64,000 nt of DNA, from NCBI RefSeq assembly GCF_004010195.1, contig NC_057759.1:5145047-5209046 (forward strand), in the 5' to 3' direction. This DNA is from Chiloscyllium plagiosum. Taxonomy: Eukaryota. Below the pieces are notes generated by a model, which was not told the origin of the DNA, did not search any database, and was given only the letters and a program-made list of their open reading frames with translations. Made by a program: the position numbers and the translations under genes. Of the stretch, positions 810 to 28,790 are shown piece after piece (the first letter of the stretch is position 1; each line of letters begins with the position of its first letter).

Positions 810-1138
810 CTGACAAAGTGAGGGTGACTACAGTTGACCCTCTACAGTTGTCAACTACAGTTGACTCACTACAGTTGACAACAGTTGTACTCCTGTGGCA
901 TTTTCAGCACCACAGGAGTACACGGCATCCTCCCCCTCAGATGGCACAGTAACATGGAAAGTGGCTGTCCTGGAGTCAATGACTGTTGTATTACCCAGAA
1001 GCTTGTGGTGATGACGGTACAGCAAGAGGTTTATAGGCAGCCTTCCTCTTTCCGAGGTACACTGGATGGTAAAGTGGTCACCAACGGATATAGTGGAGCC
1101 CTTCACATCTGAGTTGATGGATGGGCAGCTCACTGGAA
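810..1138 (-). pseudogene. FCRL-like gene, Ig exon (FCRL D4/D5-type), disrupted by a 41-bp micro-duplication
   Basis: Acceptor tctctccttcccag|TTCCAGTG at 1139-1140, donor TTGTCAG|gtatgg at 808-809. Encodes PVSCPSINSDVKGSTISVGDHFTIQCTSERGRLPINLLLYR...TATFHVTVPSEGEDAVYSCGAEN (C..C Ig pair, RG-PI motif, D-x-x-Y-x-C-x-A-x-N). Length 329 nt, or 288 nt (phase 1-1) without the duplication; premature TAG at 855-857. Confidence 0.85.
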
Positions 1139-1635
1139 CTGGGAAGGAGAGAGAAGATTCCAGCATTGATTAAAGCCCATGCGACAAAAGTAATGACCTC
1201 ATCACAAATTGCACACATGATTTTTTTCACACAAAGACACATTGCCAGTGGTGAAGGTCCAGAGTTAGATATAAACATCAAATCTTCGGTACAGAAAGAG
1301 GTCATTCGGTCTCTCGAGTATTACCATTCAAAAACAAGCATCTTTCTATTCTAACTCTATTTTCATCAGGATTACTTCTTGGGGCTACAGGGATCAAAGG
1401 GTATGGAGTAAACAGTGAACCAGAGCACTGAGTTGGATGATCAGACTGAATGGTGAAGCAGTCTTCGAAGGGCTGAATGGCCTATTCCTGCTCCTATTTT
1501 GTGTGATGCGATGAAAGAAGGAATCATGTCAGGTTATCTGTTACCTCCAAGATTTCATACATATTAAAACACACACATTCCACATCATTGAGCTATACTG
1601 CCATACCTTAATTTACTAAAGTTTGGTTAACACAA

Positions 1636-2420
1636 TGTGACTTTTATTCACTTACTGTGGCCAGACAGAAAGCTCAAAATGGCAGGTTTATGAAAAACTG
1701 GATAATAAATAAAGCACGCTGGGAAATCTAGCCAGACAGTGACCAAAGTATCGCATAAAAGCACTGAAATAAACAAGCTACAAACCCAGACAGACTGTAG
1801 CTGCAGATAGTATAATATACAATTCACACAGCCCATTCCCTTAAAAATAGGGTTCTTTTCCAGAACAAAGAGGTTTCTCACACCCTTATTTAGGAAAGGC
1901 TACCTGACCTCCATGCCCCCAACGCTTAGAAATGGAGGCCTAAGGACCACCTACCATCAACACTAACGCCTGATTGGGCCCGATTGATCAGGGTGATCAA
2001 GCTCTGATCGATCTATTTGTCGGCATTAAAGACCCTCCTAAAGAGATAAAAACACTTCTAGGTATTATAATCACCATAACACAACCCTCAGGAGTGGTAG
2101 CTCAAGACAAAGAAACATAAAAAGAAGATGACCCTTGGACCACCAGAAGAAGAAGACCAAATGATCATTGCCACATGGATGAAGGCTAATATCTAGTGTG
2201 GTGCTATTTGTACATTCAAAGTTAAAGATTTCAGATAATTAATTAAACTTACAGCATTAATTATTAGTTTATAGTGTATTGTTATTGTAGTATTAGCTGT
2301 GTTGAAATTGATAAAAAGTCATTTCTTATTAATGTCGACCTGCAGTTCTTTGCTGAACATAAAAGTCAAACTGCACTGTGTGGCAGACGCAAGAAATTGG
2401 CGACTCTGGTGGGACTCGAA
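1636..2420 (+). mobile_element. LTR followed by a tRNA-Arg(TCT) primer-binding site; internal region lost
   Basis: Starts TGTGA; 3' end (cagttctttgctga...tgtggcagacgcaaga) resembles the solo LTR at 36124-36913. TGGCGACTCTGGTGGGACTCGAA (2398-2420) is complementary to the 3' end, including CCA, of vertebrate tRNA-Arg(TCT). Confidence 0.7.
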
Positions 2421-2514
2421 AAGAAGTTACTTTGTTGTTGCAAAATTGAACCCATGGAACCTAATATTCCCTAATTTTTTGCCTGTGCCTGAATTAAGAG
2501 GACAAAATCACACA

Positions 2515-2785
2515 TGCACTGCTGCCTCACAGCACCATGGTCCCAGGTTCGATTCCAGCCTCGGGCAACTGTCTGTGTGGAGTTTGCACATTCTCACTGT
2601 GTCTGCGTGGGTTTCCTCCCACAGTCCAAAGATGTGCAGGTTAGGTGAATTGGTCATGCTAAATTACCTGTAGAGTTAGGTGCATTAGTTAGGGGGAAAT
2701 GGGTCTGGGTGGGTTACTCTTCAGAGGGTCGGAGTGGACTAGTTGGGGCGAAGGGCCTGTTTCCACACAGTAGAGAATCTAATAA
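2515..2785 (+). mobile_element. HE1-type tRNA-derived SINE (5'-truncated)
   Basis: gcactgctgcctcacagcacc...ggttcgattcc (B-box)...tgtgtggagtttgcac...cacagtccaaagatgtgcagg...gaagggcctgtttccacac tail; matches copies at 5548 and 57927. Confidence 0.85.
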
Positions 2786-3139
2786 AAATGGTTGGGAATT
2801 CAAGTTCAGGCAAGATGTGCAGCAGTATGCCATGTGAACAGAGAATTGTGGTTCTCCACTAGCCTTCCCAGAGGATCCAACCTTTTTTCTATTTCAAAAT
2901 ATACTTTATTCATAGAAATAAATCTTTGGTATTTGTACAATTTGTCATGTTGTTCATAGATATATACATTGCATGTCTTAAACATTACAAAGAACAGATT
3001 GAATTCCTCGAATTTACAGTTATCCTATTAACCATCCAGTCTCTTGTTATTTAGCTGTGGCTTCAGCAGAACCCACCTACTGAGTGGGTGCCCTGTTATA
3101 CTATAGCAAATGAACCTTTTTTAATCCCAGTTTATGGGG

Positions 3140-4586
3140 TTACCGTTGTCCATTTGACTGTCCTGTCTCTGGGGTAGCTGTCTGCATCCCCATGGTGAGC
3201 ACGAACTGCTGGACCCTCGCTGGGCTGAGGTAGCTATCCAGGCTCTCACTGGGGTCATTTACCTGCTCTGGAGTCATTGAGCCAAGGCAAAGGTCCGCAC
3301 CATCCAGTTCTGTGTCTGACAATGGGACTATCAGAGGATCGCAGCTCTCAGTTGTCTGTGGTTGTGGGGGAGTGGGTACCCCCTGGTTCTCACTGGGTGG
3401 AGGGTGGACTTCGGGGGGTCCGTTGTTTCCTGGTTGGGAGGAAATGCCCTCCTCTTCATCTACGGCGCTCTGTCTCTTCTTCTGGTGGTGATGACATTCT
3501 TTGCACCAGTCTTCACCATCCGAAGAGCTGGCCGTCCCTCCCTCGTGCAGCTGTCTTTTCCCCCTTTGCTGGGAGGCTTTGGGGGCCTGGCAGGATTTTC
3601 TCTTCCTGTTTTTAACAGGTATCCACTCCTCTGCCTGCTCGATTACCTTCTCCTCCATTGCTTCCATCTGTCCAGCTAGAGCTAGGATCAGCTGCTGTGT
3701 CTCTCCACTGTCTGCCGCCTCCTCTACTCCAGCCTGTTCTTCTTTCTAGATGCCACCAGACTCCGTTTCTCTGCTGTCTGGGTGCACCTTACTGGTCTTT
3801 GGGGGTCCACGGTTCACATTGCTACCTCCAGCCATCTGTGCGTAAGTGCCCCCCCCCCCACCGTCTTGGGCAGGTCTTGTACATGTGGCCCGCCTCTCCG
3901 CACAGGTTGCAGCTCTTTGCTTCCTGACAGTCCTTAGTCAGGTGACCCTCCTGTTTGCAGTTCCTGCAGATGGTCACCTTGCAGTCCGCCGCCACGTGTC
4001 CCGACTTCCCGCAGGTTCGGCACACTTTCGGCTGCCCTGTATATGTCAGGTAGCCTCTGTTCCCTCCAATTGCGAAGCTCGAGAGTGGGTGAAGAATGTT
4101 CCCATTGCCATCGACCCTCAGAGTCACCCTGACCTGCCGCTTACTGGTCCAGATTCCAAAGGGGTCAATCACATCGGTGGCTTCTCCCTCAACTTGGACG
4201 TACCTTCCCAGGAAGGTCAGGACATCAGCCGCTGGAACATAGGGGTTGTACATATGGATTGTAACAACCCGATTCCTCTGTGCAGGAAGCACACACAATG
4301 GGGTTGCCGACAAGATGGAAAACAGCGGCTCCCCTTCCTTCTCCTTGAAGACATTCAGGAGCTGTTCGCACTGCTACACACTCCTGAAGGTCACATCAAA
4401 GTAGCCTGCCCCAGGGAAATCTTGCAGGCAGTACACATCTGCTGCAGCGAACCCACAGCATCCCAGCAGCACTTTCTTGATAAACAGCATGCGGTCAAGC
4501 GGCGTACGATCCTCTATCTTCTTCACAGTCACCCGGACGGTGTTTTGAACCCCCTGCCCAGGTCTGCGGGCAGCTGTTGAGGCCAT
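3140..4586 (-). pseudogene. Tx1-clade ORF1 (ZCCHC3-like RRM-type region plus three CCHC zinc knuckles), decayed
   Basis: MASTAARRPGQGVQNTVRVTV...YCLQDFPGAGYFDVTFRS*...VVTIHMYNPYVP...DPFGIWTSKRQV...YTGQPKV-CRTCGKSGHVAADC-KVTI-CRNCKQEGHLTKDC-QEAKS-CNLCGEAGHMYKTC, then TYAQ and an acidic/basic tail. In-frame TAGs at 4374-4376 and about 3747, and a frameshift in the G-run at about 3849-3859. Confidence 0.88.
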
Positions 4587-4744
4587 GGCTCTGAGGTTGG
4601 CTGGTCCCTGAATTGGCGTTAGGCCGAAGCCAGCATGAAGATCCACCAATAGCAGGTCAGCACAACCAGACGATCCTCCAACGTCCAATCACGATCCAGC
4701 GATTATCTCCACTAGCTCTGATGACTCGCAACTCGACCCCTGTC

Positions 4745-4789
4745 CTGATAAGAACAGATACTACACTAGCCAAAAGGCCGAGAAGCGAT
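4745..4789 (-). ncRNA. U2: U2 snRNA 5' fragment (nt 1-52 with a 7-nt deletion), head of the retroposon, not a functional gene
   Basis: Reverse complement reads ATCGCTTCTCGGCCTTTTGGCTA-GTGTAGTATCTGTTCTTATCAG versus canonical U2 ATCGCTTCTCGGCCTTTTGGCTAAGATCAAGTGTAGTATCTGTTCTTATCAG. Confidence 0.93.
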
Positions 4790-8300: not shown

Positions 8301-8836
8301 TTCACATTGTGAAAACAGTCGAGTTACATGCACCGTACATATGCCAAATGCTTGCAGAGAGTTGGGCCAAATTTCACAGTAAGAGATCCCTCACAGCCAA
8401 ATGATCACCAGTTAGAAACTGGTCCAGGGATCAGAGCAGAGATGAATGTTGGTGATCTATCAATTATAGAACACTCCACATGAAATTAACCCTCATCCCC
8501 AGCAGCTAAATTTGGAGAGTAAAACTGGGACTATTCCAACGGCAATAAAAGATGACATGAAGATATCGGTCAACCTGAGAAACCTATTATGACGAATAGT
8601 CTTGGACTGGTATGCAACCTCTGTGTCAACCAATATGTCCCATCTCTTCCATTGCCAATGCCAATTTGTTCCACCTTGAGTTCAAACTCTTGCAAATTGT
8701 CCTAATCTGTTTCAAGACTAGAAACGAAAGACACCATTTCCATTTAGCCAGATCAGCCCTCGTGAACCATGGTTTCGATCCCATGTTAGCCTTCCCCCAC
8801 ACCTCCCACCGCACTATGGCCACTCGGTTTACTCAC

Positions 8837-9103
8837 TCTGGACAGTGACTTCCACCCGGAGGGACATGAATGTCGAAAGGTTCTGGGAAACCATGCAGCG
8901 GTACCATCCTGAATCCATTAGGGTCGCTTGTTGGATGTGATAGATATTGTGAGATTCAGAATCAGAGCTTACGATGGTTTCGTTTCTGTGGAAAGAAATT
9001 TGTCCTCTCCCACACAGGTGATCCTGGGCACAGGTACAATTCAGTATGATGGAATCACCGGCTCTCTGCAGCCTGGGATTCACCTGCAATATCACTGGAC
9101 TTT
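8837..9103 (-). CDS. FCRL-like gene, Ig exon (FcR D2-type), open
   Basis: Acceptor gtcaatttcag|AAAGTCCA at 9104-9105, donor CAGA|gtgagt at 8835-8836; 267 nt, phase 1-1. ESPVILQVNPRLQRAGDSIILNC...ISFHRN...YHIQQATLMDSGWYRC...VEVTVQ. Confidence 0.9.
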
Positions 9104-9210
9104 CTGAAATTGACAGAGAGGTTAAAATGTTTTGTGATGTAAACCATAAGATTTTGATTAATCATTTTCAATGTCTGTTCTTTGGATACCTGCTTCACAT
9201 TTGAAGTGAG

Positions 9211-9419
9211 TGTGACGATGTCAGCCGGGTGGAACATATAGAATATGAGTTCCCTGATTGGGGCTGTTAACCTGGTCAAATCAGAGAGTCCTGGCTGAAA
9301 GATGTAAACAGTGGTGGCAGGGATTTAGGAGCCAGCTCTGAGCTAGCTGGATCCCTGTACTATACATAAGTAATTAAAGGGTGACTTGACTGAATACCAG
9401 CCTCTGTCGACTTATTTCA
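9211..9419 (+). repeat. Short LTR-like repeat (related inverted copy at about 34600-34800)
   Basis: TG...CA ends; shares gagttccctgattggggctg core with the reverse complement of about 34735-34755. Confidence 0.45.
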
Positions 9420-9699
9420 GCAGCAGTTAACTGATGCATTTTCATCTCTGCATTTGATGTTAATCATTAACTCACAGGTATTTCTGACACCATTCCATCT
9501 AAAATCAGTTAGAATATAGACTGAATAGCTTTATGTATTTACATAGAACATAGAACATTACAGCGCAGTACGGGCCCTTCAGTCCTCGATGTTGCGCCGA
9601 CCTGTCATACCAATCTGAAGCCCATCTAACCTACACTATTCCATGTACGTCCATATGCTTTTCCATTTAGATTGCTTTTTGTTGGAATGATAGGTAGTG

Positions 9700-12600
9700 C
9701 AGTTGTGAGAGATCCCTTGGGATGAACATTCATAGCATGATAGAATCTTTCGTTAGAATGGAGAGTGAGATTCTGAGACTAGGTTTCTGAATGTTAATAA
9801 GGTAAACTATGGTAGTATGAGGTGTGAGTAGGCTATAATGGATTGGGAAATGTTACTGTAAAGTATGAGAGTGGGTAGGCAGTGGCGAGCATTCAAAGAG
9901 CGAATGGGTCAGCTACTAAAATTATTTATTCCAACTTGATTTTAGTGAAACTGAAACAGTGACCAACCTATGGCTTCCAGGGGATATTTCAGATAGCATT
10001 AGATGCAAAAACAAAAAGGATTTCAAATTAGCAAGAAAAGAAAGAGTAGCCTTGAGGATGAGGAACAGTTCAGAAGTCACCGAAGGGGGACCAAAAGATT
10101 GCGTGAGAAGAGGAAACTAGAGTATTAGTGTAGGCTTGCTGGGAACATAAAAACTGACTGCAAATGTATAAAGAGAAAAGTATTGCTGAAAACTAATCTA
10201 AATCCATTTCACTCGGAAACAAGAGAATTTACAATGAGGAACAAAGAAATGGCTGATGAACTGAATTTGTACTCACTTTTGTCTTCATACATGAGGAGAT
10301 GAAAAATGTGCTGGAAATGATGGGGAACACGGAAGTTGTTGAGCCGGAGGAAATAAAGGAATATTGCTAGGGAAATTGATGAGATTGAAGGGAGATTGAC
10401 CTCAGGCCCTGACAATCCACATCGCAGAGTGGTTAAGGGAGTGGCCATAGAATTTATGGTTGCATTGGTGACAGTGTTCAAGGATACAACAGACTGTGGG
10501 CTAGTTCATACAGATTAGACGTTTGCTGATGTAACCTTGCTATTTAAAAAGGGAAGTAGAGTCATACAGTAATACAGCATGGAAAAGGCACTCTGACCCA
10601 ACAAAATCCTCTGTTAATTAAAAACATATACCCAGAAAAACTCACCTCAGCTCATAATCTGTTAAAATGTGTGTGTGACAGAGAACTCCTAATTTCTACA
10701 ATGTAAAGAAAAATAATAACTTATTTTCTAACTCTAATAGTGAATAATAAACAACAACTATTTACAAATCCAAGTCCCTTTTCTTAACTACTTATTATCT
10801 GACTTCAATGCAATAAAAATATGTTGTTCCATTAACACACTTATTAAACATTACATTAGCTTAATCTCAAGACCACACAGTCTCTGTCTTCCCTGCTGTC
10901 TTCAGTTTCCTGCTGCTGATCTCTCTGGGTCACCTTCTTTCTTTTCACTGTGAATAAACGTTACATGAAAAGGTACCATTGATAGAGGTTTTTTTTCTGA
11001 TTTCTTTAAGAGCACGATGTTGGAAAGGCAGTTAATTTTCTGGTATTTTCTATCTCTATGGCAGTTTTCAACCAGTTTGCAAAATATCTTCATTCTTATA
11101 TCACACAACTTTGGATCTTCTCATTTGGTCAATGTTGGAAAAACATTAAGTTCAAACTCAATTTGGTTTTAGTATCCCATGGCATCATTTAAACTGATTG
11201 ATTAAATTTGAATTATTGTCAAAACAATAACTCAAGTAACCATTTCACAGCTAAATGTTACATATTTTCAATTTACCAGTATACTCTGGGACTGCCATCC
11301 AGTCAGATACAGGGGTTTGTAATCTCTCAGTTCAGAACAACATTCTCTCTCTTAAAGGTACAGTACATTAAAGGTACAACCTTCAAACTTCATAACATAG
11401 GAGGGTGTGAAAACTGTACTGGAAATGATGGGAAACACAGAGGTTGGTGAGATAGAAGAAGTAACAATATATTGCTGGGGAAATTGATGGGTAAAAACGG
11501 AAATCGATCCTCAGCGCCTGACAATATCCGTTAAGGAAGTGGCCTTAGAATTGATACATTGGCGACCGTGTTTGAGGATCCTACAGATGCTGGGATAGTG
11601 CCTGCATATTAAACGGTTGATGATGCAACCTTACTATTTAAAAAGAGAGGTAGGATCATCCAGTAATACAGCAGGAAAACAGGCCTTCCGGTCCAAACTG
11701 ATCCATGCCAACTATGGTTCCCACTAAGCTATTTACAATTGCCCTCATTTGGTCCACATCCCTCTAAAACCTTCCCATCCATGTACCTATCCAAATGTCT
11801 TTTTAAAAATGTTACTGTTGTACCTGCCTCAACCAATTTCCCTACCAGTCCATTCCATATATGCACCATAGTCTGTATGAAAAAGTTGCTCCTCAGTTCC
11901 TTCTTAAATCTTTCCCCTCTCATCTTAAACCTGTGCCCTCTTGTTTTCATTTCCTTATTCCTGGGAAAAAAAGACTATTTGCATTCATCCTGTCCGTGCC
12001 CCTGATGATTTATATACCTCTCTAAGGTCACCCCTCATTCTTCCACGTTCCAAGGAATAAAACCCTATCCTGGACAACTTCTTCCTCTAACCCAAACCTA
12101 CTCGTCCTGGCAACATCCTTATAAATCTTCTTTGCACTCTTTCCATTTTAACTATATTTTCTTATAACAGGGTGCTCAAAACTGTACACAATACTACAAT
12201 TGCAGCCTCACCAATGACTTATACAACAGCAACATAAAGTCCCAACTCTTATGTTCAATGCCTCGACCGATGAAGGCCAGCATGCTAAATGCCTTCTTAA
12301 CCACCTTGTCACCCGATTATGCTGCCTTCAACAGACAAATGTTTGCACTCCTCGAATCCTCTGTTCCACTCACATCTCTGAACCTTTATATTAATATCTT
12401 GGTTTGACTTTCTAAAGTGTGACAGCTCACACTTACCTGTATTGAATTGCATTTGCCAATCCTCACCCCCTTCCCCATCTGATCAAGATCCTTCAGTAAT
12501 TGTTGATAACCTCTTCCTTGTTGTCATTAATACTTTCTAATTTTGTAATATCCACCAATTTACTAAACATGCCTTGTACATTCACAATCAGACCATTTAT

Positions 12601-13070
12601 GAAAATAGCTGAAAAATGTGTTGCTGCAAAAGCGCAGCAGGTCAGGCAGCATTAAAAGAGCAGGAGAAGCGACGTTTTGGGCATCAGGCTTCTGAAGAAG
12701 GGCTTATGCCCGAAACGTCGATTCTCCTGCTCCTTTGATGCTGCCTGACCTGCTGTGCTTTTCCAGTAACACATTTTTCAGCTCTGATCTCCAGCATCTG
12801 CAGTCCTCATTTTCTCCCATTTATGTAAATAACAAGCTACAAAGGTCCTGTCACCGACCCCTGTGGCATACCACTCGTCACAGGCTTCCAGTCCGAGAAA
12901 ACACTTTCAACCATCACTCTCTGCCTCCTAGAATTCAGTGAAACTTGAGTCCAATTAGTTAGGTTTCCCTGGATTCCAGGCGACCTAACCTTTGTGACTA
13001 GTCTGCCATGCGGGGACCTTGTTAAAATTCATGTAGACAACATCCATTGGGCATTACAGGCCAGTCAGCC
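9700..13070. mobile_element. Nested CR1 fragments (+ at 9700-10560 and 11400-11650; - at 11650-13050) with an LTR-like insert at about 10605-11397
   Basis: CR1 ORF2 motifs (minus strand MKTRGHRFKMRGERFKKELRSNFF...WNGL); the segment ending ...cttcataaca reads TGTTATG on the minus strand. Confidence 0.65.
12606..12817. mobile_element. Penelope terminal module in fold-back arrangement with hammerhead core
   Basis: Inverted copies of gctgaaaaatgtgttgctg..aaagcgcagcaggtcaggcagcat flank CTGAAGAAGGGCTTATGCCCGAAACGTC (12692-12719). Confidence 0.8.
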
Positions 13071-15540: not shown

Positions 15541-15799
15541 CTGTCAAGAAAGAAATGACTTGAATTAATAACGGGGCGTAAGAACCAACCAGACCAATCA
15601 GCTGCTTGCTGCCAGCAAAGTCTCTACTCATACAAGTCCCTGACTCCAGCTCATCATCCAACACGACTTTCCAAGTAGCTGTGTAACCAACCCTTCCACT
15701 TATGATTATAAAACAAATTTCCAAAAGGGGCACCGAATTTTGCTTTTGCAGTGTCTTTTCCCCATTTCAGCCCACTATCCAAAATACAGGAAAAAATAA

Positions 15800-18480
15800 T
15801 CGGTAATTCTCAAGAGCAGTGCATCCCATTGACAGGAAATATAGAGGAGCTGGGTATTGTTTAAATGGAGAAAGACTGCAGAAAGCTATGGATCAGAGGG
15901 ATTTGAGGAGTCCTTGTTTGTGAATCACAAAAAAAGCTAGCATGCAAATACAGTGGGTTACAGGGAACACAAATTGTTTTTATTTCAAAGGAAATGGGCC
16001 ATAAACAGTGGGAAGTTTTACTAAAGCTATACAGCCAACGCATTAGTCAGACTGTAGCTAGGATCCAGTGAACAGTTTGGGCCCCATATCTAAGGAAGGT
16101 TAGACCAACATTGGAGGCAGTCCACAGAAGGTTCACTCAGCTGAGCTGGGTAGGGAGGGACTGTCTAATGAGAGAGAAATTGAGTACGTTGGGCCTGTCC
16201 TCATTGGAGTTTACAAGAAAGAGAGGCGACCTTATGGAATATTCTTCAAGAGTTTTACAGCACTGATGCAGAAGAGGATGTTTCCCCTTGTGTGGGAGAG
16301 CCTGAGACAAGAGGGGCATTGCCTCAGAATAAGGGGATGTGGCGGACACCTAGTGAAGTTGGAGATGAGAAGGAATTCCTTCTGTCCGTGGGTAGTGAGT
16401 CTGTGGAATTCTTTGCCGCACAGGGCTGTTGAAGCTGGATCATTGAGGACATCCAAGTATGAAAATTTTAATTGGGAAGGAGAGTTGAGGGTGACTGGGA
16501 GTGTAGAGTTGTAGATGGTCAGACGGATTGCGATATCATTGAACACTGGAGCAGATGCAATGGGCTGAATGACCTAATTCTGATCCCACATCTCAAGAAT
16601 TTGAGAATGCAAGTGTCACAAGTCACTGCTCTGCTGATACAGCAGTCAATGCCTGCTATGTACTGAACAGATACTGCTGAGAACTATTCTTTCTGTGCTG
16701 TTAATGTTTGGAAAGGTGAACCATTTCCTAATGTCCTGCATTGACTGTGGAAGAGAAACTGTCAAGTGGGGGGGAAGGGGGTTACAAAAGAATTAAAAGA
16801 ATGCATCAGACTCAGCGTCATAGAGTCGTCAACTCATAGGTTCATACAACACAGAAATGGACACTTCAGTCCAACAAGTCCATGCCGATCATAATCCCAA
16901 ACTAAACTAGCCATATCTGCCTGAGCTTGGCTCATATCCCTGCAAACATTTTTAAAAAAATCATGCACTTAGCCAAATGTTTTTCAAACTTACAACTGTA
17001 ACCACATCCATCACTTCCTCTGGAAGTTTATTCCACACACGAACCACACTGTGTAAAATCAACTGTCCTTCATGTCCTTCTTAAATCTCTTTCCTCTTAT
17101 TTTAAAAATATGCCCACTAGTCTTGAAATCCCCCACCCTCGGGAAAAAGATTCCTTCCATCCCCTCATGATTTTGAAAACCTCTATTAAGACCCCCTTCG
17201 ACCTCGTGCACTACAGTCAATGCAACATATTTTTATAACTCAAACCCTCCATTCCCAGCAACATCCTGGTAAATCTTTTCTGAACCCCCTTCTGCATAAG
17301 AATAGCTTTCCTTTAACAGGGCAGCCAGAACTGGACAGAACTCTGGAAGAGGCCTCACCAACATACTGTACAACCTCAACATGACATCCAATCCCCTATA
17401 TTCAAAGGTCTGAGCAAGGAAGGTAAACATGCTAAATGCTACCTTAACCACCCTGTCTACCTGTGACGCAAATTTGAAAGAATTGTGCTCCTGAATCCTA
17501 AGCCTCTCTATTCAACTACACTACCTAAGGCCCTTTTAATTGTAGAAGCTCTGCCTTTGTTTGTTTTGCCAAAAAGTAACACTGCACATTTATCCAAATT
17601 AAACTCCTTCTCCCACGCCTCAGCCCACTGACCCGATCACGTTTTAGGGCCAGAGGTAGGGTTGCAGTTGAAGTAGTGGCCCCTCTTTTCCCGACATGTG
17701 TATCTTGGTTGTGGATCTGGATCTTGTTGTGCAGGGGGAGCATTTCCAAGTTTGCAGATTGCAAAAAATCCCAGGAGAATCGTAAACTGTAAGGAGAAAT
17801 AGTGTGGAAATCCAATAGGACATTGACAAATTGGTGGCATGGGCAGAGCTGTGGCAGATGCAATTCAATGTAAAGAGAAGTGTGAGGTGCGGCACTTGGT
17901 GGGAAGAACATTGAACGATAATAAAAAGTAGGGGGATACAATTCTACAGAGGGGTGTAGGAGCAGAGGGAGCTGGGGCACATGTCCACAAATCAGTGAAG
18001 GCGGAATGACGAGGGGAGAGCGATTAATAAAATACACAATGCCTTTGGCTTTATTAGTAGAGTTGTACAGTCTGCCAGCAGGGCGGTGATACAAGACACC
18101 AGTTAGACCTCAGCTGGAGTACTGTGTAGGGAGCTGGGGCACATGTCCACAAATCAGTGAAGGTGGAACGACAAGGGGAGAGCAGTTAATAAAATACATA
18201 ATGCCTTTGGCTTTATTAGTAGAGTTGTACAGTCTGCCAGCAGGGCGGTGATTTTGAATATGTACAAGACACCAGTTAGACCTCAGCTGGAGTACTGTGT
18301 ACACTTGTTGGCACCATGTTACAACAACGTAATGGGGAATGGGGCAGGGTTTGGGGGAAGCACAGAAGCAGTTTACGGATGTGCTTTTCCAGCACCACTC
18401 TAATCTAGACTCTGGTTTCCAGCATCTGCAGTCATTGTTTTTACCTAAGATTCCATGGATGAGAAACTTCAGCGCTCGAG
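15800..18480. mobile_element. Cluster of degenerate CR1 fragments on both strands
   Basis: CR1 ORF2 C-terminal motifs (VVSLWNSLP; FEYRGLDVMLRLYSMLVRPL) and a local duplication 17965-18120 / 18128-18290. Confidence 0.7.
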
Positions 18481-19516
18481 CTTTAATGGAGTATCATGCT
18501 TTTCAGTCTATAACAGACTGCATTAAACAGTGAGCTTTGTTTTGACTTATAATTGGGAAATAACCAGGAATTTAGTTCATAAAGGGAGCTGGTTTTCTCT
18601 TAGCAAGAGATTGTTTCAGTTCAGATCATTTCCCCTCTGGGAGTGCACCAGCAGGATGTTTTCTTCTTGTTTTTCTTTTAATTTGTGAAGTCTCCAAGCT
18701 AGGACAGTTTGATATAGAAATGTAAAATTCTCAGAGGTGTAAGATATATAATAAAACACTCACGCCCTCGAAATAGCGAGACTGTCACTCAAACAGACTC
18801 GTGGATGAAACATGACATTGAAAAGACAAATGGAAAGAAGGAGTCAGTTAAGTCGAGCTTTCAAGAGTTGGATGACGATGATAGAAATATCAAAAATAGG
18901 AGAAGGAGTAGGCCACTTAGCCCTTCGAGAGAGTGCTGTCATTCAATCGGATAGTCTCAGTCCCGTTCCCCGTTTTAACGGCTTTAATAACGAACTCTAT
19001 ATGAACTTAAGGGGCGGGGTCATATGTACCGGACGTATCACAGATTAGCAATCGAGTGGACCAGGGTGACAATCCACAGGGTGAGTTTGAATCCCCCTGC
19101 TTTCCTACGAGAGCCGCTGGGTAACACTGATCCAGGCTCAGTGAGATCTGCACATGAGATGGTGTCTGTCGAAACCATGCCACCCACCCACTTCCCATCA
19201 TCACAAGAGTCCTTCTGGGAGACTGCTGTCTGTTCTAAGCACTTCCCTTTCCCTTTCCAAATCCAATTGCCTCCAACTTTCAAGTGGGCAAGCTGCCCAG
19301 TCCAAGGGCATGTGGCTCACAATGTGGCAGCAATGCCTGAGAAAGTTTGGGGGTGGGGGGTGGGGGTGTGGAAGGCACCATCAATCGATTCAGTGAAGAC
19401 CCGCAAACCTTTGCGCATCATAGCTGCACTGATGCTAACCCATGAGAAGACCAATATCCTTACTATTCCTACCCCTGAGTATCTTTGGGAATTATTAGAA
19501 ACACGCCCCAACTCAC

Positions 19517-19790
19517 AGGATACTCTCACGAGAATGCTGTTACTGTAGGGTGTTTTATGTGCCGATGTGGAAGATTGGCATCTGTACTCCCCAACATCCT
19601 CCTTTGTAGCAGCCTCAATGATGTAAGTCTTCTCCCTGAACTCTTTGGTAGTTTTGTTTATGATCCAGTTAGGTCGTCGAATGAAGCTCCCGACCGGCAT
19701 TGCAGCTAAGAGTGATCCGGTCACCCGTTAAGAATCTGTCCCACATTGGCTCCATCGTTAGTACAGGTGCTCCAGTCTCCACTGAGGAAC
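19517..19790 (-). pseudogene. FCRL-like gene, first Ig exon (FcR D1-type) with a +1 frameshift
   Basis: Acceptor tttttctatggattag|GTTCCTCA at 19791-19792, donor TCCT|gtgagt at 19515-19516; 274 nt (3n+1). GAPVLTMEPMWDRFLTGDRITLSCNAGR / SFIRRPNWIINKTTKEFREKTYIIEAATKEDVGEYRCQ...SNSILVRVS; the two halves are in different frames, and the first stops at 19669-19671. Confidence 0.9.
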
Positions 19791-20599
19791 CTAATCCATA
19801 GAAAAACATACACAGCCACAATGGGAAGCACTGAAATTTGCTTGCTGCAGTAGCTTGCCACTCAGACAACTCAAGTTGGCTTAGGCTGTTGAGAGGTAAG
19901 TAACATTCCCATCTCACAAATTCTAGACGACTATCTCCAATAAGAGAGAATTGAACCATCACCCCTTGACATTCAATGGTGTTACCATCTCTGAATCGCC
20001 TCAATATCGATATATAGGGGTTACCAGTGAGAGAGAATCTCACCAGCCCCTTCACTTCCAAAGATATTACCATGACTGAATCCGTCATACTATCAGTATT
20101 GGGGGTGGGGGTGGGGGAGGTTTACAATTGAGAGAGAATTGAACCATCTCCCTTTGGTGTTCTATTGTGTTATTATCACTAAAGTCCCCACTATCAATAT
20201 GCTGGGGTTACTATTGAAGGATAAATTAACCATCATTTTCCCCATTATCAACATTCTCAAGGCTATGTTGAGAGATCGTAACCATTGCCACCCATCCTCC
20301 CGGCTTCACAACATTTGTGTTGCTATCATTAAAAGCAAATCTAATCATCGCCCCCTCATTGGTGTTAGCATCACTGAATCACTCATTATCAATATGATGG
20401 GGATGACTATCAAGAGAGAGTCTAGCCAACAGTCCTTGACTTTCAATATTAATATCATCACTGAATCCCCCCACGATTAATATCCTGGGTATGCCATTGA
20501 CCAGAAACTGGACTGGACTCACCATGTAAGCACAATAGCTACAACAGCAGGTCAGAGGCTGGGAAGCCTGCAGTGAGTAACTCACCTTTGGACTCGCAC

Positions 20600-23580
20600 C
20601 CTGTCAACAAGGTGCAGTGACAGGCAGCATGGTTTTGTGTATCTCAATATCTTGATTGAATTTTTGGAGAAGAGAGAAAAAAAAATTGATAAAGGTAGAG
20701 TGGTGGATTTTGTCTATCTGGACTTCAGCAAGGTGTTTGACAAGGTTCTCCATAATAGACGGTTGAGCAAGGTTAGATCACATGGAATATAGGGAGAGCT
20801 AGCCATTGGACACTCAATTGGCAGAAAGGTAGGAGTCAGAAGGCGATGGGTTGCTTTTCAGAGAGAAGGCTTGGGATCAGCAGGGTGCCACAAGGATCGG
20901 TGCTGCATCCACTGCTTTTCCTTATTTAAATAATTTGGATATGAATATAGGAGGTATAGTTTATAAAATAGCAGACAACACAGTTTTGGCAAGGTGGACA
21001 GTGAAGGAAGTTGTCTCAAAGTACAACAGGATCTTGATCAGATAGGCTGAAGAGTGGCAGATGGAGCTAAATTTAGATAAATGTGAGGTGTTGCTTTTTC
21101 ATAACACAAATTAGGGCAGGACTTACACACGTGATGGCAGGGTTCTGGGAGTGTTATCAGACAAAGAGACCTTGGAATGCAGGTTTGTAGTTCATTGAAG
21201 ATAGCGTTGCAGGTGAGGGAGAAGGTGAAGAAGGTATTTGGTACGCTTGCCTTTAATGGTAAATGCATCAAATGTAGGAGTTGGGAGGTCATATCATGGC
21301 TGTACAAACGTCGATTCTCCTGTTCCCTGGATGCTGCCTGACCTGCTGCACTTTTCCAGCAACACATTTCCAGCTCTGATCTCCAGCATCTGCAGACCTC
21401 ACTTTCTCCTTTAATGGTAAATGCATCGAATGTAGGAGTTGGGACGTCATATCATGGCTGTACAGGACATGTGTACAGCCACATTGAGAATACCAATAGC
21501 CGCAAGATGTTGTGAAGTTTGAGAAAAGATTAACAAGGATGTTGCCAGGATTGGAGGGTATGAGCTGTGCAGAGAGATTGAATGAGCTGCGACTATTTTC
21601 CTTGGAATGTTGGAGGCTGAAGGGTGACATGACAGAGGTTCATAAAATGATGAAGAGCATAGCGTGTGTGAATAGTCAAGGTATTATCCCCAGGTTCGGG
21701 GAGTACAAAACAAGAGGGCATAGGTTTAAAGTGAGAGGGAAAAGATTTAAAAGGGACCTAAAGGGGACCTTTCTCATGCAGAGTGTGGTGTATGTATGGG
21801 ATAAGCTGCCAGAAGAAGTGGTGAAGATAGGTACAATTGCAAGGTTAACAAGGCATCTGGATGGGTTTATGAATAGCACGGGTTTAGAAGGATATTGGCC
21901 TAGTTGTGGCAAATGGGATAGGTTGCATGCAATTCTGGTCTCCTTCCTATCGGAAAGATGGTATATGAATAGGAAGGGTTTGGAGGGATATGGGCCGGGT
22001 GCTGGCAGGTGGGACTAGATTAGGTTGGGATATCTGGTCGGCATGAATGGGTTGTTTGGGTTTCCATGCTGTACATCTCTATGACTCTATGACTATATCT
22101 GGAGGGTAGCAAATGTGTTCCTCTTGTTCAAGAAGGGGAATAGAGGCAAACCTGGCAAGTATAGACCAGTGAGCCTTTCATCGGTTTTGTGTAAAGTTTT
22201 GGAAAAGATTATAAGAGATATGAGTTATATTCATCTGGAGAGCAATACATTGACAAGAGCTAGTCAACATGGTTTTGTGAAGGGTCGGTCGTGCCTCCCA
22301 AACCTTATTGAGTTCTTTGAGAAGATGACCAAAGAGGTGGAGGAGGATAAAGTGGTTGATTGTGGTGTATATGCTTTTCAGTAAGGCATTTGATAAGCTT
22401 CTGCACAGTGGAGTATTGCACAAAACACAGAGGCATGGGATTAAAGATAATTTAGCAGATTGGATCAGAAACTGGTTACCTGAAAGAAGATGGGGGTGGT
22501 GTTTGATGGAAAATGTTCATCCTGGAGTTCAGTTACTAGTGGTGTACTGCAAGGATTGGCTTTGGGATGACTACTGTTTGTCATTTTTATAAATGACCTG
22601 GATCAGGGCATAGAAGGATGAGTTAGTAAATTTGTGGATGACATTAAGGTCAGTAGAGTTGTGGATACTACTGAATGATGTTGCAGTTACAGAGGGGTAT
22701 AGATAAGGTGCAGAGCTGGGCTTGAAGGTGGCAAATAGAATTTAATGCAGAAAAGTGTGAGGTGATTCACTTTGGTAGGAGCAACAGAAATAAAGAGTAC
22801 TGGGCTAATGGTAAGATTCTTGATAGTGTGAATAAGCAGAGAGATCTTGGTTTCAATGTGCATAGATCCCTGAAAGTTGTCACCGAGGTTGATAGGGTCG
22901 TTAAGAAGGCATTCGGCGTGTTAGTAGAGGGATCGAGTTTTGGAGCCATGAGGTCATGCTGCAGTTGTACAAACTTCTGGAGCAGCCGCATTTGGAGTAT
23001 TGTGTTCAGTTCTGGTAACTGCACTATAGGAAAGATGTGAACGTTTTGGAAGAGGTTCCAAAGAGATTTATTGGATGTCGCCTGATATGGAGGTCAGGTC
23101 TTCTGAGGAAAGGCTGAGGGACTTGAGACTGTTTTCATGGAGAGAAGTAGGTTGAAAAATAACTTAATTGAGGCATATAAGATAATCAGAGGGTTAGACA
23201 GGGTGGACAGTGAGAGCCTTTTTCCTCGGATGGCGATGGCTAGCACGAGGGGACATAGCTTCAAATTGAATGATGAAAGATATAGGGACAGATGTCAGAG
23301 GTAGTTTCTTTATTCAGAGTAGTATGGGGCATGGAATGAATGCACTGCCTGCAATAGTAGCAGAGTCACCAACTTTAAGGGTATTTAAATGGTCATTGGA
23401 TAAACATATGGATTAAAATGGAATAGTGTAGGATATGTGTGCTTAAGAGTCGTTCCACAGGTCGGTGCAACCTCGAGGGTAGAAGGGCCTCTGTTACGCT
23501 GTGATGTTCTATGTTATATGGTCAGTGTGGACGAGTTGAACTGAAGGGTCTGTTCTGTGCTGTACAGCTCAATGACTCTA
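20600..23580 (+). mobile_element. Two nested CR1 LINE 3' portions
   Basis: LFKKGNRGKPGKYRPVSL...QHGFVKGRSCLPNLIEFFE; TRMLPGLEGMSCAERLNELRLFSLE...TRGHRFKVRG; tails gactctat and gttctat. Confidence 0.85.
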
Positions 23581-23805
23581 AATCAGGAGTGTGATGGACA
23601 CAAAATGTTAACTGTGTTTTTCTCTCTCCCTCTCAGTCCGCAGATGCTGCCAGACCTGCTGAGCTTATGTAACATTTTGTGTTTGTTTCATATTTTCCAA
23701 AGTTGCAAGACTTTGTTTACCATAATGTAAACACTGACGCAAGTGCAGACACTGTGGGGTTCTTCAACAAGTCATGAAAGGAAGGCACACTGGATCTTAA
23801 CATAC

Positions 23806-23835
23806 CTTCTCGTATTTGTAGAATCATCACTTGCT
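23806..23835 (-). CDS. FCRL-like gene, 30-nt S2 signal-peptide mini-exon
   Basis: tatattttcag|AGCAAGTGATGATTCTACAAATACGAGAAG|gtatgt; phase 1-1, encodes (E)QVMILQIRE(G) and joins S1 to the first Ig exon in frame. Confidence 0.75.
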
Positions 23836-23909
23836 CTGAAAATATATAATTAGACACGATCAATAAGTTTTATGGAAAGTGGAATTGAGGATGATTAGAT
23901 AAGCCATGA

Positions 23910-24037
23910 GGAGAAAGTGAGGATTGCAGATGCTGGAGATCAGAGTTGAAAATGTGTTGCTGGAAAAGCGCAGCAGGTCAGGCAGCATCCAAGGAACAGG
24001 AGAATCGACGTTTTGGGCATAAGCCCTTCTTCAGGAA
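23910..24037 (-). mobile_element. Penelope terminal module with TSD
   Basis: ggagaaagtgaggattgcagatgctgg...gggcataagcccttcttcagg flanked by gataagccatga on both sides. Confidence 0.8.
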
Positions 24038-26049: not shown

Positions 26050-26400
26050 CATATCCATAGAATCCTTACAATGTGGAAGTAGTTCATTCAGCCCAATGAG
26101 CCCACACCAACCTTCCAAACAGCATCACACACAGACCCATCTCCCTAACCTAACCCTGCACTTGTCATGGCAAACCTACCTAGACTACACATCCCTGGAC
26201 ACTAAGGGTAATTCCCCTTAGCCAATTCACCTTAACCTGCACATCTTTGGATTTTGGAAGGGAACTGGAGCACTGGGAGGAAACCCACACAGACATGGGA
26301 AGAATGTGCAAACTCCACACAGACAGTTGCCAGAAGGTGGAATCGAACCCGTGTCTCTGGTGCTATAAGGCAGCAGTGCTAGCCATTGAGCCACCATGCT
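26050..26400 (-). mobile_element. HE1-type SINE
   Basis: Reverse complement of the HE1 core (tgcacatctttgga...gtgcaaactccacacag...gcagcagtgcta). Confidence 0.8.
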
Positions 26401-27754
26401 ACCCCCACATTCCCCATTTTGTCTTCATTTCACTTGGTTCCTTTCAAATCTAGACAATTATCACTCCATTCAGCTCCCTTTGTCTATCCCCACTTCCCAG
26501 TTTGTCACCATTTCAATCGTACTCACTTTTTGTTTCTCCACATCGGTTTCACTTTTAGCCACGTTGTACTGCATCTGCAATGTGCTTGTCCACTCACTCA
26601 AATTGTCTAAATCACTTCCTTTGCATCCTCCTCACAATCCTGGCCAGTTTTGTGTCATGAGCAAACTTGGAACTGTTGCATTTGGCTCCCTCATCCAGGT
26701 CATTAATATATATTGAGAGTGGCTGGGGCCCATGTATTAGTTCCTGCAGTATCCCACTAGTCACAATTTGCCTCTTGGGTAAAAGACACATTTATTCTCA
26801 CTCTCTCTCTTGTCTGTCAACTAATTCTCAATTCACATCAATATACTGCCATCAAACTCTTGTCCTTTCACTTTGCACATAAACCTCGCGTCAAATGTCT
26901 TCTGAAAAAGCCAAATAAGCTACATGTACTGCTTCTCCCTTATTTATCCTCAGACCCTCAGAAAATGACGGTTGATTTATTAAGGTTCTTCTGCCTCTCA
27001 TAACCCATTCTGGCTTTGTCCAACGTCTTTAATGCTTTCTAAGTGTTCTGTCATCACGCCTTTTATAGGTATTCCCAGAATTCCCCCTACTAACTGATGT
27101 TCAGCTATCTGGTCTGTAATACTCTGTTTATTTTTGTCACTCTCTGCCGCCTACCTTTTAAACAGAGGGATTACATTACCTCTCCTCCAATATGTGGGAA
27201 TTGTTTCCAAGTCTATAGAATCTTAAAGCATTATCAACAATGCACCCATTATATCCAGTTCCACTTTCTTAAGGATGGTGAGATATCAATTAAGAGGCCC
27301 TCAGGACCTATCCCACAAATTTCCCCAACACCATTTCCCTACTATTACTGATTTCCTTCAATTCCTCCCTCTCAGTAGATGTTGGCTATCTAACATTTAT
27401 TAGGAGATGATTTCTTTCCCTCTTTTGAGAAGACAACCAAATTATGCATTCAAATCTTCTGCCGTTATAATATCATCTTGATTCAGATTGCATTGGACCT
27501 ACAATTGTCTTCATAAATACTTTTCTCTTCACATGTTTGCAGAAGCTTGCAGTCAGTTTTTATGTTCCCTGTTATTTTAAACTCATTCGCTATTGTCCTG
27601 CTCTTGATCAAAATTTTTGTCTTTGTTTTCCAAATTCTACAATTCAATTATGCATATTCACTTTCATGTACACCAGCATACTCGCAAACGCACACACTAC
27701 CGTTATACATTTGGGCATTGCTGACGAGACCAGCATTTATTGCCTGTCGTTAAC

Positions 27755-28585
27755 TGTGCTCTCTCTCCTGCAACCTCTTTCTCTCACTATCTCCCACGCA
27801 CCCTCATTCTCGCTCTCTCCCACACCCTCACTCGCTCCATTTATCTCCTGCACCCTAACTCTTCCTGTATCTCTCCTGCACCCTCACACTCTGCCTTTCT
27901 CTCCCGCAACCTCATTCTCTATTTCCCGCACTTTAATACACTCCCGCTCTCCCCCACATTCTCAGGCTCTCTCTTACAATCTCACGTTCTCTCTCCCTCA
28001 CATTCTCACTCTCTCCCATTCTTATTCTCTCTCTCTTCCCCACACTCTCAGTCACTCTCTCTCCTGCACCTACACTCTCTCCCGCACCTTTACTTTCTCT
28101 GGCTCTCCCCTGCATCCTCACTCTCCCTTTCTCCCCCGTGCCCTCACTCTGTCCCTCCTCTGTATCCTCATTCTCCCTCTCGTGCCATCATTTCCTCTCT
28201 CCCGTACACTCACACACACACGCTCTCTCTCCTGCACCGTCAATTTTCTTTTCAGTCTGTACCCTCTCTCTCTCTCTCTCATACACACAACTTCACTCTC
28301 CCGCTCGCACCCTCACTCTCCTGCACGAGTGTGTTTGTGAGAGTGTTTGGATGAGAGAGAGGGAGACTGTGCATGAAGGCTGAGAGAGATTGTGAGGAGT
28401 GCATGTAAGAGAGGGTGTTAGATAGTGTGTACGTGAGAGACATATACTGTGCGTGAGAGAGTATGAGAGATAGTGAGACTGCATGTAAGAGGGTGTCTGC
28501 GTGAGAGAACAACAATGTTGGAAAGTGTGTGTGAGTAAGTGTGAGTGTGTGTGAGTGAGTGAGCATGTGCACATGTGTGTGTATG
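27755..28585. repeat. CT/CA-rich then GA/TG-rich low-complexity tract in intron 1
   Basis: Degenerate (ct)n/(ca)n switching polarity at about 28325. Confidence 0.85.
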
Positions 28586-28759
28586 TATTTGTTAAGCAGT
28601 CTGGGAAATACCAGCACATATGTGCACTGCTGTCCGTATCCAATAGGATTCTGCCTCTGTTCACATTCCCATTGTACACTGAGTTGAGGGCAGGAGATGA
28701 ATGACAGATTTATTCCTTGCACCCACCCTGAAATAGTGATAAAAGCTGGAGATACATAC

Positions 28760-28790
28760 CGAGCAGTAGGAGGGCAGAGAAGATATCCAT
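28760..28790 (-). CDS. FCRL-like gene, S1 signal-peptide exon (start codon)
   Basis: gactgtgATGGATATCTTCTCTGCCCTCCTACTGCTCG|gtatgt gives MDIFSALLLL plus a phase-1 donor at 28758-28759; good Kozak context (g at -3, G at +4). Confidence 0.75.

Follow-up and report, generated by a model that had tools for sequence, protein, structure and literature searches.

The window, a 64,000-nt stretch of the bamboo shark Chiloscyllium plagiosum (NC_057759.1, here scaffold C50), contains six minus-strand exons of one receptor gene, namely, a split leader (31 + 30 nt) and four C2-type Ig exons (Table 1). All internal exons are AG...GT bounded, and all joins are in phase 1. An earlier sequence-only reading had described six to seven exons; its phase-1 GT-AG joins and N-terminus were reproduced from the six, as was its leader split by a mini-exon, which RefSeq models share, while the seventh exon, a "decayed D3," was not recovered. 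Pfam Ig models match all four Ig exons, with Ig_C17orf99 as the best match of domain 4. The class-profile scores of the three whole domains were 29 to 53 bits, compared with a maximum of 8.2 bits over 90 shuffles. Rfam returned no match at gathering thresholds. The mini-exon is present in four copies in the DNA examined and in RefSeq models P0002, P0006, and P0017; isoform P0005 skips it. The leader, mini-exon, and Ig exons recur in RefSeq models from four carpet-shark species. Ig domain 2 matches RefSeq XP_043539749 at 100%, and the best PDB matches of domain 3 are Fc-gamma receptors.

Table 1. Features of the receptor locus (window positions, except where C50 coordinates are given)
Feature	Position	Strand	Description
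Leader exon 1	28790-28760	-	31 coding nt, ATG and GT donor; proximal module; homologue in three sister copies
Leader mini-exon	23835-23806	-	30 nt, phase 1, AG/GT bounded
Ig domain 1, FcR D1 type	19790-19517	-	274 nt; frameshifted
Ig domain 2, tied between FCRL D2 and D3, close to PECAM1 D1 in structure	15540-15253	-	288 nt, open frame
Ig domain 3, leans FCRL D2 type	9103-8837	-	267 nt, open frame, in spliced transcript
Intronic insertion	2880..4789	-	U2 snRNA 5' fragment, Tx1-type ORF1 remnant, A-rich tail
Ig domain 4, FCRL D5/PECAM1 D5 type	1138-810	-	329 nt, 3' end broken
TM exon	G000:C50:5134461-5134318		Left of window; uncharged
Tail exons	C50:5133678-5133613, 5129847-5129822, 5125920-5125792		Left of window; ITIM-type motifs IVYSAV, VTYASL, SIYQNI

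The transmembrane (TM) and cytoplasmic exons had been predicted to lie outside the window, and examination of the left-adjacent sequence located one TM exon and three tail exons there. The design of an inhibitory FcR/FCRL form is present: the TM is uncharged, and the ITIM-type motifs are encoded by separate exons; one of seven TM copies carries an Arg substitution. The three-motif tail pattern occurs in 27 of 295 proteins compared (23 shark and 4 bony-vertebrate FCRL-type, one named FCRL3) and in none of 50 PECAM1-labelled proteins. Three other sharks have short-tailed relatives with Arg at the TM start (P0027, P0028, and P0041) but no exact NxxR. A search for an activating-type TM (NxxR) with one 35-aa query retrieved nothing from the bamboo-shark genome, and none was seen in the stretches examined; this is not proof of absence.

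Relative to intact paralogues, the D1 exon has a 2-bp deletion near 19670. The missing bases lead to a stop after 60 residues, and the frameshift explains why RefSeq isoform X2 starts inside D1. The last Ig exon is 38 nt longer than its paralogue through a short tandem duplication and contains in-frame stops; both RefSeq models of C. plagiosum skip it. The leader-D1-D2 block of the window is a disabled duplicate in this assembly, and its 5' exons would be the wrong template for gene cloning. Disabled D1 copies account for 6 of the 10 found. The sequence-only reading did not mention that its frame does not run through.

The decayed D3 that had been placed between Ig domains 3 and 4 finds no profile support. 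Five shark-domain profiles run over 8837-1138 gave nothing under E 0.1, and tblastn and profile searches with stops read as X turned up no remnant of an Ig exon in that interval. The same held for the additional domain present in other sharks at this position, of which a copy sits at C50:4.04 Mb instead. The likeliest candidate (about 5120-4778 plus 2881-2780) reached at most 5 bits on the profiles and was rejected. This stretch is intron sequence common to three paralogous loci and is split here by a retroelement (insertion 2880..4789), for which the empty site is present in three paralogous loci. The stretch taken for a decayed domain was probably close to this insertion.

An intact sister module (leader, mini-exon, D1', and D2') lies right of the window, 69 kb upstream (G000:C50:5223501-5236190). 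A spliced RNA contig joins the D2' of this module to the window D3, with no differences from the latter and ending at both exon borders. All 15 differences that mark the sister D2' are present in the D2 of the contig, and 27 to 33 bases separate the other D3 copies from its D3. RefSeq main model X1 makes the same join and derives its 5' half from this upstream module. Because the contig links sister D2' to window D3, the exon assembly first proposed is not the transcript seen: its D3 is in spliced RNA, but the only spliced contig seen uses the sister D2 rather than that of the window. The most likely working product is leader-D1'-D2'-D3-TM-tail (418 aa, RefSeq X1), in which a fourth Ig domain may be present or absent by allele. 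No RNA run is listed among the indexed runs for this sequence. In the roughly 2% of single-cell run X21 that was sampled, a single read matched D1, with 6 differences, and the D2 and D3 bins were empty; these counts are uninformative on expression level.

With regard to gene structure only, there is an appreciable, if less than even, chance that in the animal the two 5' modules do not both precede a single D3 but are the heads of two near-identical whole genes or haplotypes with collapsed or mis-scaffolded shared 3' halves, with the D1 deletion explained by assembly error or by a private null allele. The distal module runs about 120 nt into its intron before a 500-N assembly gap, with no matching intron beyond it, and copies near the window are fragmented or inverted. 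The RNA D1 contig is nearest a third copy, at C50:5438 kb, with which it has 5 of its 7 differences in common; the distal module shares 1 of the 7, and the expressed allele may therefore be mosaic. The D1 deletion is also not seen in contigs of three other runs (X17, X1, and X5), where all those bridging 19669 carry both bases, and X1 also contains window-type D2 sequence; this absence proves little, as contigs drop rare variants and short bubbles. The RNA contig continues for 291 nt past D3; this equals the size of an intact fourth Ig exon, but the TM and tail exons also fit within about 1 base. The stretch compared with reads took in neither the last Ig exon nor the TM junction. Against collapsed haplotypes, the two modules are 92% identical over 12.2 kb aligned, introns included, and 85% identical in the flanks, which is low for alleles, and RefSeq models place both modules onto the same D3.

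The shark origin and the affinity to FcR/FCRL proteins claimed from sequence are supported. Among PDB sequences, human FCRL5 matches best and is collinear over four domains (E 1e-45, compared with 5e-15 for FCRL4 and 1e-13 for CEA); this whole-protein score is inflated by repeats, and a single collinear stretch scores 4e-16. A 15-sequence profile retrieved FCRL5 at 6e-85 and the next PDB match at 2e-29. FCRL5 was the top PDB match in both searches (FCRL4 second and fourth), which were run in one direction with shark queries. In profile comparisons that left out LILR/KIR and MILR1 and used an FCRL reference set labelled partly by recognition and score rather than database names, FcR D1 was best for the N-terminal domain in 12 of 12 shark proteins, by 6 to 28 bits. 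PECAM profiles scored at most 26 bits on D1, compared with 41 to 63 for FcR D1. For the second domain, previously called D3-like, the D2 and D3 profiles tie, with margins of 4 bits or less over 12 shark proteins. The D2 label of the third domain is reasonable in the window (46 bits for D2 and 40 for D3), but over 12 shark proteins D2 and D3 were each best in 6. The last domain is D5-like as proposed, with FCRL D5 best in 7 of 10 and PECAM1 D5 in 3 of 10, though the two tie: in carpet-shark proteins, PECAM1 D5 exceeds FCRL D5 in 3 of 3, and in the window it scores 53 bits against 50. Longer shark members show the order D1, D2/3, D2/3, D4, D5, D5, the same as that of FCRL3.

In a quick maximum-likelihood tree of 175 domains (91 columns), shark D1 falls within FCRL D1 and the last domain within FCRL D5, with SH-aLRT values of 86 each; no branch uniting shark and FCRL domains reaches 95. 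The second and third shark domains join neither the D2 nor the D3 clade, and the second lies weakly beside PECAM1 D1 (74). CEACAM and CD22 domains form a separate side (95) without shark domains. Of the families whose clustering was to count against an FcR/FCRL assignment, CEACAM and CD22 show no grouping with the shark domains, but PECAM1 D5 ties for the last domain and PECAM1 D1 has a weak affinity to the second. PECAM1 D1 is also the best single-domain structural match of the second domain (Z 14.2, rmsd 1.7, 92 aligned). For a four-domain model, Foldseek listed LILRB2 and PirB at the top with TM-scores of 0.2 to 0.3, and sidekick and contactin ranked similarly; FcR, LILR, PECAM1, and adhesion molecules could not be told apart by fold. 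A D1-D2 model gave rmsd values of 13 to 14 Å against FcRs and 5 to 8 Å against LILR, NKp46, and GPVI, its inter-domain angles being unreliable, as they derive from a shallow alignment of 18 sequences.

The claim of a multigene family is borne out by paralogous copies in a cluster and orthologues in other sharks. Ten shark genera contain members, and two related sharks have intact four-Ig orthologues of 514 aa. The bamboo shark has about ten or more copies, mostly broken, over several megabases of one small scaffold. In three pairs, D2 pN/pS values were 0.062/0.050, 0.166/0.097, and 0.135/0.128 (small counts; some copies are pseudogenes). None of the markers of the human 1q21-23 FCRL neighbourhood lies on C50: matches to Vangl, an RGS-like RhoGEF, and PIG-M fall on C12, C35, and C29, PRCC was not found, and which paralogues the matches represent is ambiguous.

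Fcrl-like genes were reportedly described from elephant shark in 2021. FCRLs are stated to be lacking in cartilaginous fish in PMC4016189 (2014), which found none in shark data, and in a 2026 review (PMC13337447), which asks how sharks manage Fc-type functions. Our literature search on shark FcR/FCRL, with most subscription journals outside its reach, found no paper describing this family. Novelty is nonetheless limited, since RefSeq already auto-names the gene and its orthologues FcgRI-like or FCRL2-5 (XP_043539744-49, XP_072422780, XP_060712762, and others) and such names were used in a 2024 single-cell paper. The RefSeq names for shark models rest on similarity. The 2024 paper (PMC11372145) reports "fcgr1a-like, fcrl3, fcrl5" as high in bamboo-shark B cells; RefSeq gives the window locus a name of this kind, a match in name, and two of 11 rows of the supplements give no bamboo-shark gene identifier.

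Mammalian FCRL3, FCRL4, and FCRL5 (PDB 9loc and 9mbz) resemble the shark gene in their collinear C2 domains, with FcR D1 first and a D5 type last, and in a two-exon leader, an uncharged TM, and an ITIM-type tail over several exons. In contrast, identity is about 25 to 30%, the second and third shark domains are not cleanly typed, the shark cluster comprises many copies that are mostly pseudogenes, and the mini-exon, with 30 nt in each of four copies, is longer than the 21 nt of mammalian FCRLs. The shark gene thus departs from the 30/21-bp leader rule of the mammalian FCRL1-6/FcgRI subgroup. According to PMC2413239, a two-exon signal peptide is invariant in XFL and mammalian FcR-like genes, but only a fraction of Xenopus family members keep the 30/21-bp rule, which therefore marks the mammalian subgroup rather than the whole family. 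The same source describes inhibitory Xenopus XFLs with a two-exon leader, an uncharged TM, and separate tail exons with 1 to 3 Tyr motifs. Proteins of the XFL/LITR kind from amphibians and fish, most typed by recognition, are frequent among the next matches. Xenopus XFL paired receptors and teleost LITRs also form large lineage-specific clusters with birth-and-death and domain shuffling and have an inhibitory form with 1 to 3 Tyr motifs; unlike them, the bamboo shark yielded no activating NxxR TM with the one query used. The CEACAM/CD22 N-terminal V-set was not found, shark D1 being C2-type.

Taken together, the locus is probably an inhibitory type I leukocyte receptor of the FcR/FCRL lineage in a birth-and-death cluster. 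By analogy with FCRL, LILRB, and PECAM1, ligand clustering would lead Src-family kinases to phosphorylate the tail tyrosines, the phosphorylated tail would recruit SHP-1/SHP-2, and this recruitment would damp B-cell-receptor or phagocytic signals. The ligand is somewhat more plausibly a variable host or pathogen surface protein, as suggested by the fast family turnover, D2 copies with pN at or above pS, and a D1-D2 model without the classical FcR arrangement. Antibody Fc is a less likely ligand, and an unlikely one overall. A genuine inhibitory Fc receptor with shark IgM, IgW, or IgNAR as its ligand, working as FcgRIIB or human FCRL5 does on B cells and phagocytes, appears unlikely. The tryptophan pair that forms the classical FcgR contact is missing from the shark D1-D2 linker in alignment, the model superposes poorly on FcRs (angles unreliable), and a variable ligand fits the rapid turnover better. 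Fc receptors are the best sequence matches, a 1988 paper cited in PMC6795676 bears the title "Fc receptor for shark IgM," and the B-cell labels of PMC11372145 point the same way by name. However, in PMC12757038, FCRL5 was the single one of six human FCRLs to bind IgG-Fc, and mouse FCRL5 failed to bind the Fc of either IgG or IgM; family membership is therefore no predictor of Ig binding.

A shark family that expanded independently from the PECAM1/MILR1 side of the same superfamily, with D1 convergent or shuffled and FCRLs proper beginning in bony fish, is rather improbable. PECAM1 (CD31) and MILR1/C17orf99-type proteins have membrane-proximal domains of D4/D5 type and an ITIM tail in common with the shark gene, and MILR1 (Allergin-1), with two or three D5-like domains, is linked to PECAM1. 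Consistent with such an origin, PECAM1 D5 and D6 tie for the last domain and for the additional fourth domain present in other sharks, the second domain is structurally nearest PECAM1 D1, Ig_C17orf99 is the best Pfam match of the last domain, and the 2014 survey found no shark FCRL. But no PECAM1 domain resembles D1, and PECAM1 differs in lacking FcR D1 and the three-motif tail and in having five to seven domains in the set compared; the shark gene has 3 to 4 with FcR D1 rather than the six-domain PECAM architecture. Sharks have a separate PECAM1-like gene, on contig C24. Membership in the leukocyte receptor complex (LILR/KIR type), with MHC class I-like ligands, is very improbable. The Foldseek order, the better fit of the two-domain model to LILR geometry, and the Arg-bearing short-tailed relatives are in its favor, LILRA-type receptors having Arg at the TM start (PMC2413239). 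However, LILR/KIR proteins, close in fold, do not appear among the 60 best sequence matches of either search, the Foldseek list is not discriminating, and Xenopus XFLs of the FCRL family also use an Arg-type TM (PMC2413239).

An inhibitory FcR/FCRL-lineage receptor thus remains our preferred reading. A bolder extension, which we consider quite doubtful, is a paired shark FCRL family with an ancestral D1-D2-D3-D4-D5-D5 order predating bony fish, in which one member mediates IgM-dependent opsonisation and cytotoxicity and alternative 5' modules share D3-TM-ITIM. If true, duplicated 5' modules spliced to a shared D3-TM-ITIM unit would vary the ligand-binding head in the bamboo shark. The shark ectodomains are concrete material for tests against IgM, IgW, and IgNAR, and a conserved, transcribed FCRL-type family in sharks would move the origin of the family to the jawed-vertebrate ancestor.

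The split leader and the Ig exons with phase-1 GT-AG junctions predicted by a sequence-only reading were found on the minus strand, and all four Ig exons match a Pfam Ig model. Class-profile scores of the three whole Ig domains ranged from 29 to 53 bits (shuffled controls, ≤8.2 bits; n = 90 shuffles), and D2 is 100% identical to a Chiloscyllium plagiosum RefSeq protein. As that reading had also anticipated, the TM and cytoplasmic exons lie beyond the window: the adjacent sequence 10.6 to 19.3 kb to its left holds the 3′ end of the gene, with an uncharged TM exon and three tail exons encoding IVYSAV, VTYASL, and SIYQNI ahead of the stop. These three motifs conform to the ITIM consensus. A 1.9-kb gap separates the last Ig exon from the TM exon. 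The proposed "decayed D3" domain was not recovered: across the stretch from D3 to the last exon, five shark-domain profiles gave no match at an E value of <0.1. Its best candidate was intron sequence shared with three paralogous loci, interrupted in the window by a U2-headed Tx1-like element.

Features of the receptor locus and its surroundings (window positions unless prefixed with C50, the contig on which the window occupies 5145047-5209046)
Feature	Position	Strand	Remarks
Leader exon, 31 nt	28790-28760	minus	GT-AG border
Leader mini-exon, 30 nt	23835-23806	minus	GT-AG borders, phase-1 join
Ig exon D1	19790-19517	minus	GT-AG, phase 1, Pfam Ig model match
Ig exon D2	15540-15253	minus	GT-AG, phase 1, Pfam Ig model match
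Ig exon D3	9103-8837	minus	GT-AG, phase 1, Pfam Ig model match
Last Ig exon	1138-810	minus	GT-AG, phase 1, Pfam Ig model match
U2 snRNA 5′ fragment, Tx1-type ORF1 remnant, A-rich tail	4789-2880	minus	Intron insertion
TM exon, 144 nt	C50:5134461-5134318		Helix without charged residues
Histone, zinc-finger-like, and GPCR-like frames	C50:5063.7-5065.6 kb, 5458 kb, 5016 kb, 4065 kb		Read by eye

The window copy is damaged. Compared with nine paralogous D1 exons, its D1 lacks two bases present in the intact copies; thus, the reading frame ends after 60 residues. Its last Ig exon measures 329 nt versus 291 nt in intact form, a gain of 38 nt caused by a short tandem duplication that contains stops, and both C. 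plagiosum RefSeq models leave this exon out. Intact 514-aa proteins with four domains, plus three-domain isoforms, are present in Chiloscyllium punctatum and Hemiscyllium ocellatum.

Contigs of four sequencing runs were compared with window positions 8700 to 23950; one run, X17, is presumed to be RNA. An 893-nt X17 contig contains exactly exon D2 (15 differences), followed without interruption by exactly exon D3 (0 differences). Because the two exons join directly at their exact borders, this contig represents a spliced product. Every one of the 15 D2 differences is shared by D2′ (C50:5223.5 kb), itself distinct from window D2 at 17 sites; other copies of D3 differ from window D3 at 27 to 33 sites. 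D2′ belongs to a sister module upstream of the window, in which the leader, mini-exon, D1′, and D2′ are all intact (92% identity across 12.2 kb aligned) and which terminates at an assembly gap 69 kb upstream of D3. RefSeq isoform X1 (418 aa) takes its 5′ half from the sister module and joins it to window D3, the combination also seen in the X17 contig. From these two sources, we conclude that D3 is live and, by RefSeq, so are the TM exon and tail. Among the run contigs over positions 8700 to 23950, no RNA came from the 5′ block of the window itself. The only spliced contig seen joins window D3 to sister D2′ rather than to window D2, which counts in part against the exon linkage proposed from sequence.

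Alternatively, duplicated 3′ halves may have been collapsed in the assembly, or the window may carry a private null allele, a reading to which we give somewhat less than an even chance. Three points speak against a simple reading: the RNA D1 contig is closer to a third copy (5/7 differences in common), the two missing bases are present in all contigs bridging the D1 deletion site (runs X17, X1, and X5), and the X17 contig continues beyond D3 for 291 nt, as long as a fourth Ig exon in intact form. The gene model proposed earlier needs correction: its leader and four Ig exons exist, but D1 and the last exon are damaged and the 5′ half of the transcript is probably supplied by the sister module.

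The assignment to the FcR/FCRL family was largely upheld by the best PDB sequence match (human FCRL5, collinear across four domains), by D1 typing, and by a tree. Thirteen domain profiles were built for FCRL D1 to D5 (322/370 tetrapod domains past a score filter), PECAM1 D1 to D6 (15/16 bony-vertebrate proteins), CEACAM-like, and CD22-like domains, with reference labels taken partly from database names and partly from recognition of unnamed sequences. The FcR D1 profile was best for shark D1 in 12/12 proteins. Shark D2 was undecided, with margins of at most 4 bits and CD22 ahead in one case, D3 split 6:6 between the FCRL D2 and D3 types, and the last domain favored FCRL D5 in 7/10 and PECAM1 D5 in 3/10. 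The extra domain of other sharks tied between FCRL D4 and PECAM1 D6. A quick maximum-likelihood tree (175 domains, 91 columns) placed shark D1 within FCRL D1 and the last domain within FCRL D5 (SH-aLRT, 86), left D2 and D3 without a firm position, and kept CEACAM and CD22 separate from the shark domains. A three-motif tail pattern, derived from the shark tail itself, was present in 27 of 295 proteins, 23 from sharks and 4 of FCRL type from bony vertebrates, and in 0/50 PECAM1-labelled proteins. A PECAM1-like gene is located on another contig, C24. The AlphaFold models contain four Ig folds plus a TM helix; fold searches with them could not tell FcR, LILR, and PECAM1 apart, and the modelled D1-D2 geometry fits FcRs poorly. 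Synteny markers gave no help with placement: Vangl, RGS-like RhoGEF, and PIG-M matches fell on C12, C35, and C29, respectively, PRCC gave no match, and no marker was on C50.

One exon on C24 (48096118-48096363) is 90% identical to a whale-shark protein named FCRL5 by RefSeq that types as PECAM1-like; thus, genes called "fcrl5" in shark data sets may be PECAM1. A PECAM1-FCRL5 relationship is proposed in PMC7916592.

The C. plagiosum genome contains, as lower bounds, at least 10 D1, 11 D2-like, 8 D3, and 8 last-domain matches, with at least 7 TM-exon and 10 last-tail-exon matches. The span of C50 from 0.5 kb to 6.43 Mb holds almost all of them; the remainder are mostly on small contigs. Stops or frameshifts affect 6/10 D1 copies, and a seventh lacks the second cysteine. 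Ten genera have named members: Chiloscyllium, Hemiscyllium, Stegostoma, Rhincodon, Mustelus, Scyliorhinus, Heterodontus, Heptranchias, Pristiophorus, and Cetorhinus. In several sharks outside the carpet sharks, one more domain precedes the last, and in three there are short-tailed forms whose TM begins with Arg. A further FCRL-type gene, more distant and with D3-type domains (C50:4914-4930 kb), is 47 to 66% identical to a Stegostoma protein named PECAM-like (P0070), whose tail carries the three-motif pattern and whose first two domains pair with D2 and D3 of the family in the tree (93 each).

At C50:5387-5424 kb, the 3′ half of a paralogue has an inverted duplicate, either a rearrangement or a misassembly; the TM and first tail exons occur solely in the inverted block and are missing from the gene-orientation copy. 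Interspersed in the cluster, as read by eye, are histone genes (H2A, H2B, and H1-like), GPCR-like frames, and one zinc-finger-like frame. One RefSeq model (P0036) joins a D1 fragment to histone H4, probably an annotation artefact.

Within the window, the intron insertion combines a U2 snRNA fragment (Rfam E value of 0.0067, under the gathering score) with an ORF1 remnant containing ZCCHC3 RNA-binding domains and two zinc knuckles, and its empty site is preserved in paralogues. Keno elements, which target U2 and are named in PMC4494074, are similar, but the insertion in the window occupies a non-U2 site. Broken retrovirus-like stretches on the plus strand (∼29480-32870 and 44100-49700) are 87 to 89% alike; env and gag were read by eye, with only a weak zinc knuckle in Pfam. 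The former is missing from the flank of the sister module, so its insertion came after the module duplication. A GC-rich tandem repeat (62188-63580, plus strand) has a 446-codon open frame of ∼20-residue units that found no match in Pfam.

Known FCRLs inhibit through SHP-1/SHP-2, and by extension this receptor would signal in the same way. Directly observed are the hydrophobic leader, the C2 domains (three or four), the TM free of charged residues in its helix, the three tail tyrosine motifs, and D2′-D3 splicing. In gene design, the locus matches the inhibitory XFL receptors (PMC2413239). Since IgG binding is infrequent even among mammalian FCRLs (PMC12757038), an antibody Fc is an unlikely ligand; a variable host or pathogen molecule is somewhat favored. 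The genome also has one CD3-zeta/FcR-gamma-type transmembrane exon (C12:49769721-49769807).

A 2021 study reportedly found fcrl-like genes in elephant shark. PMC11372145 lists fcgr1a-like, fcrl3, and fcrl5 for bamboo-shark B cells, identified solely through annotation names, and PMC6795676 cites a 1988 title, "Fc receptor for shark IgM." The locus is already auto-annotated, yet no published description of this receptor family was found in the literature that could be searched. According to PMC4016189 and PMC13337447, cartilaginous fish lack FCRLs. The window locus is real, is best read as encoding a shark inhibitory receptor of the FCRL lineage, and conflicts with this statement, which was repeated in 2026.
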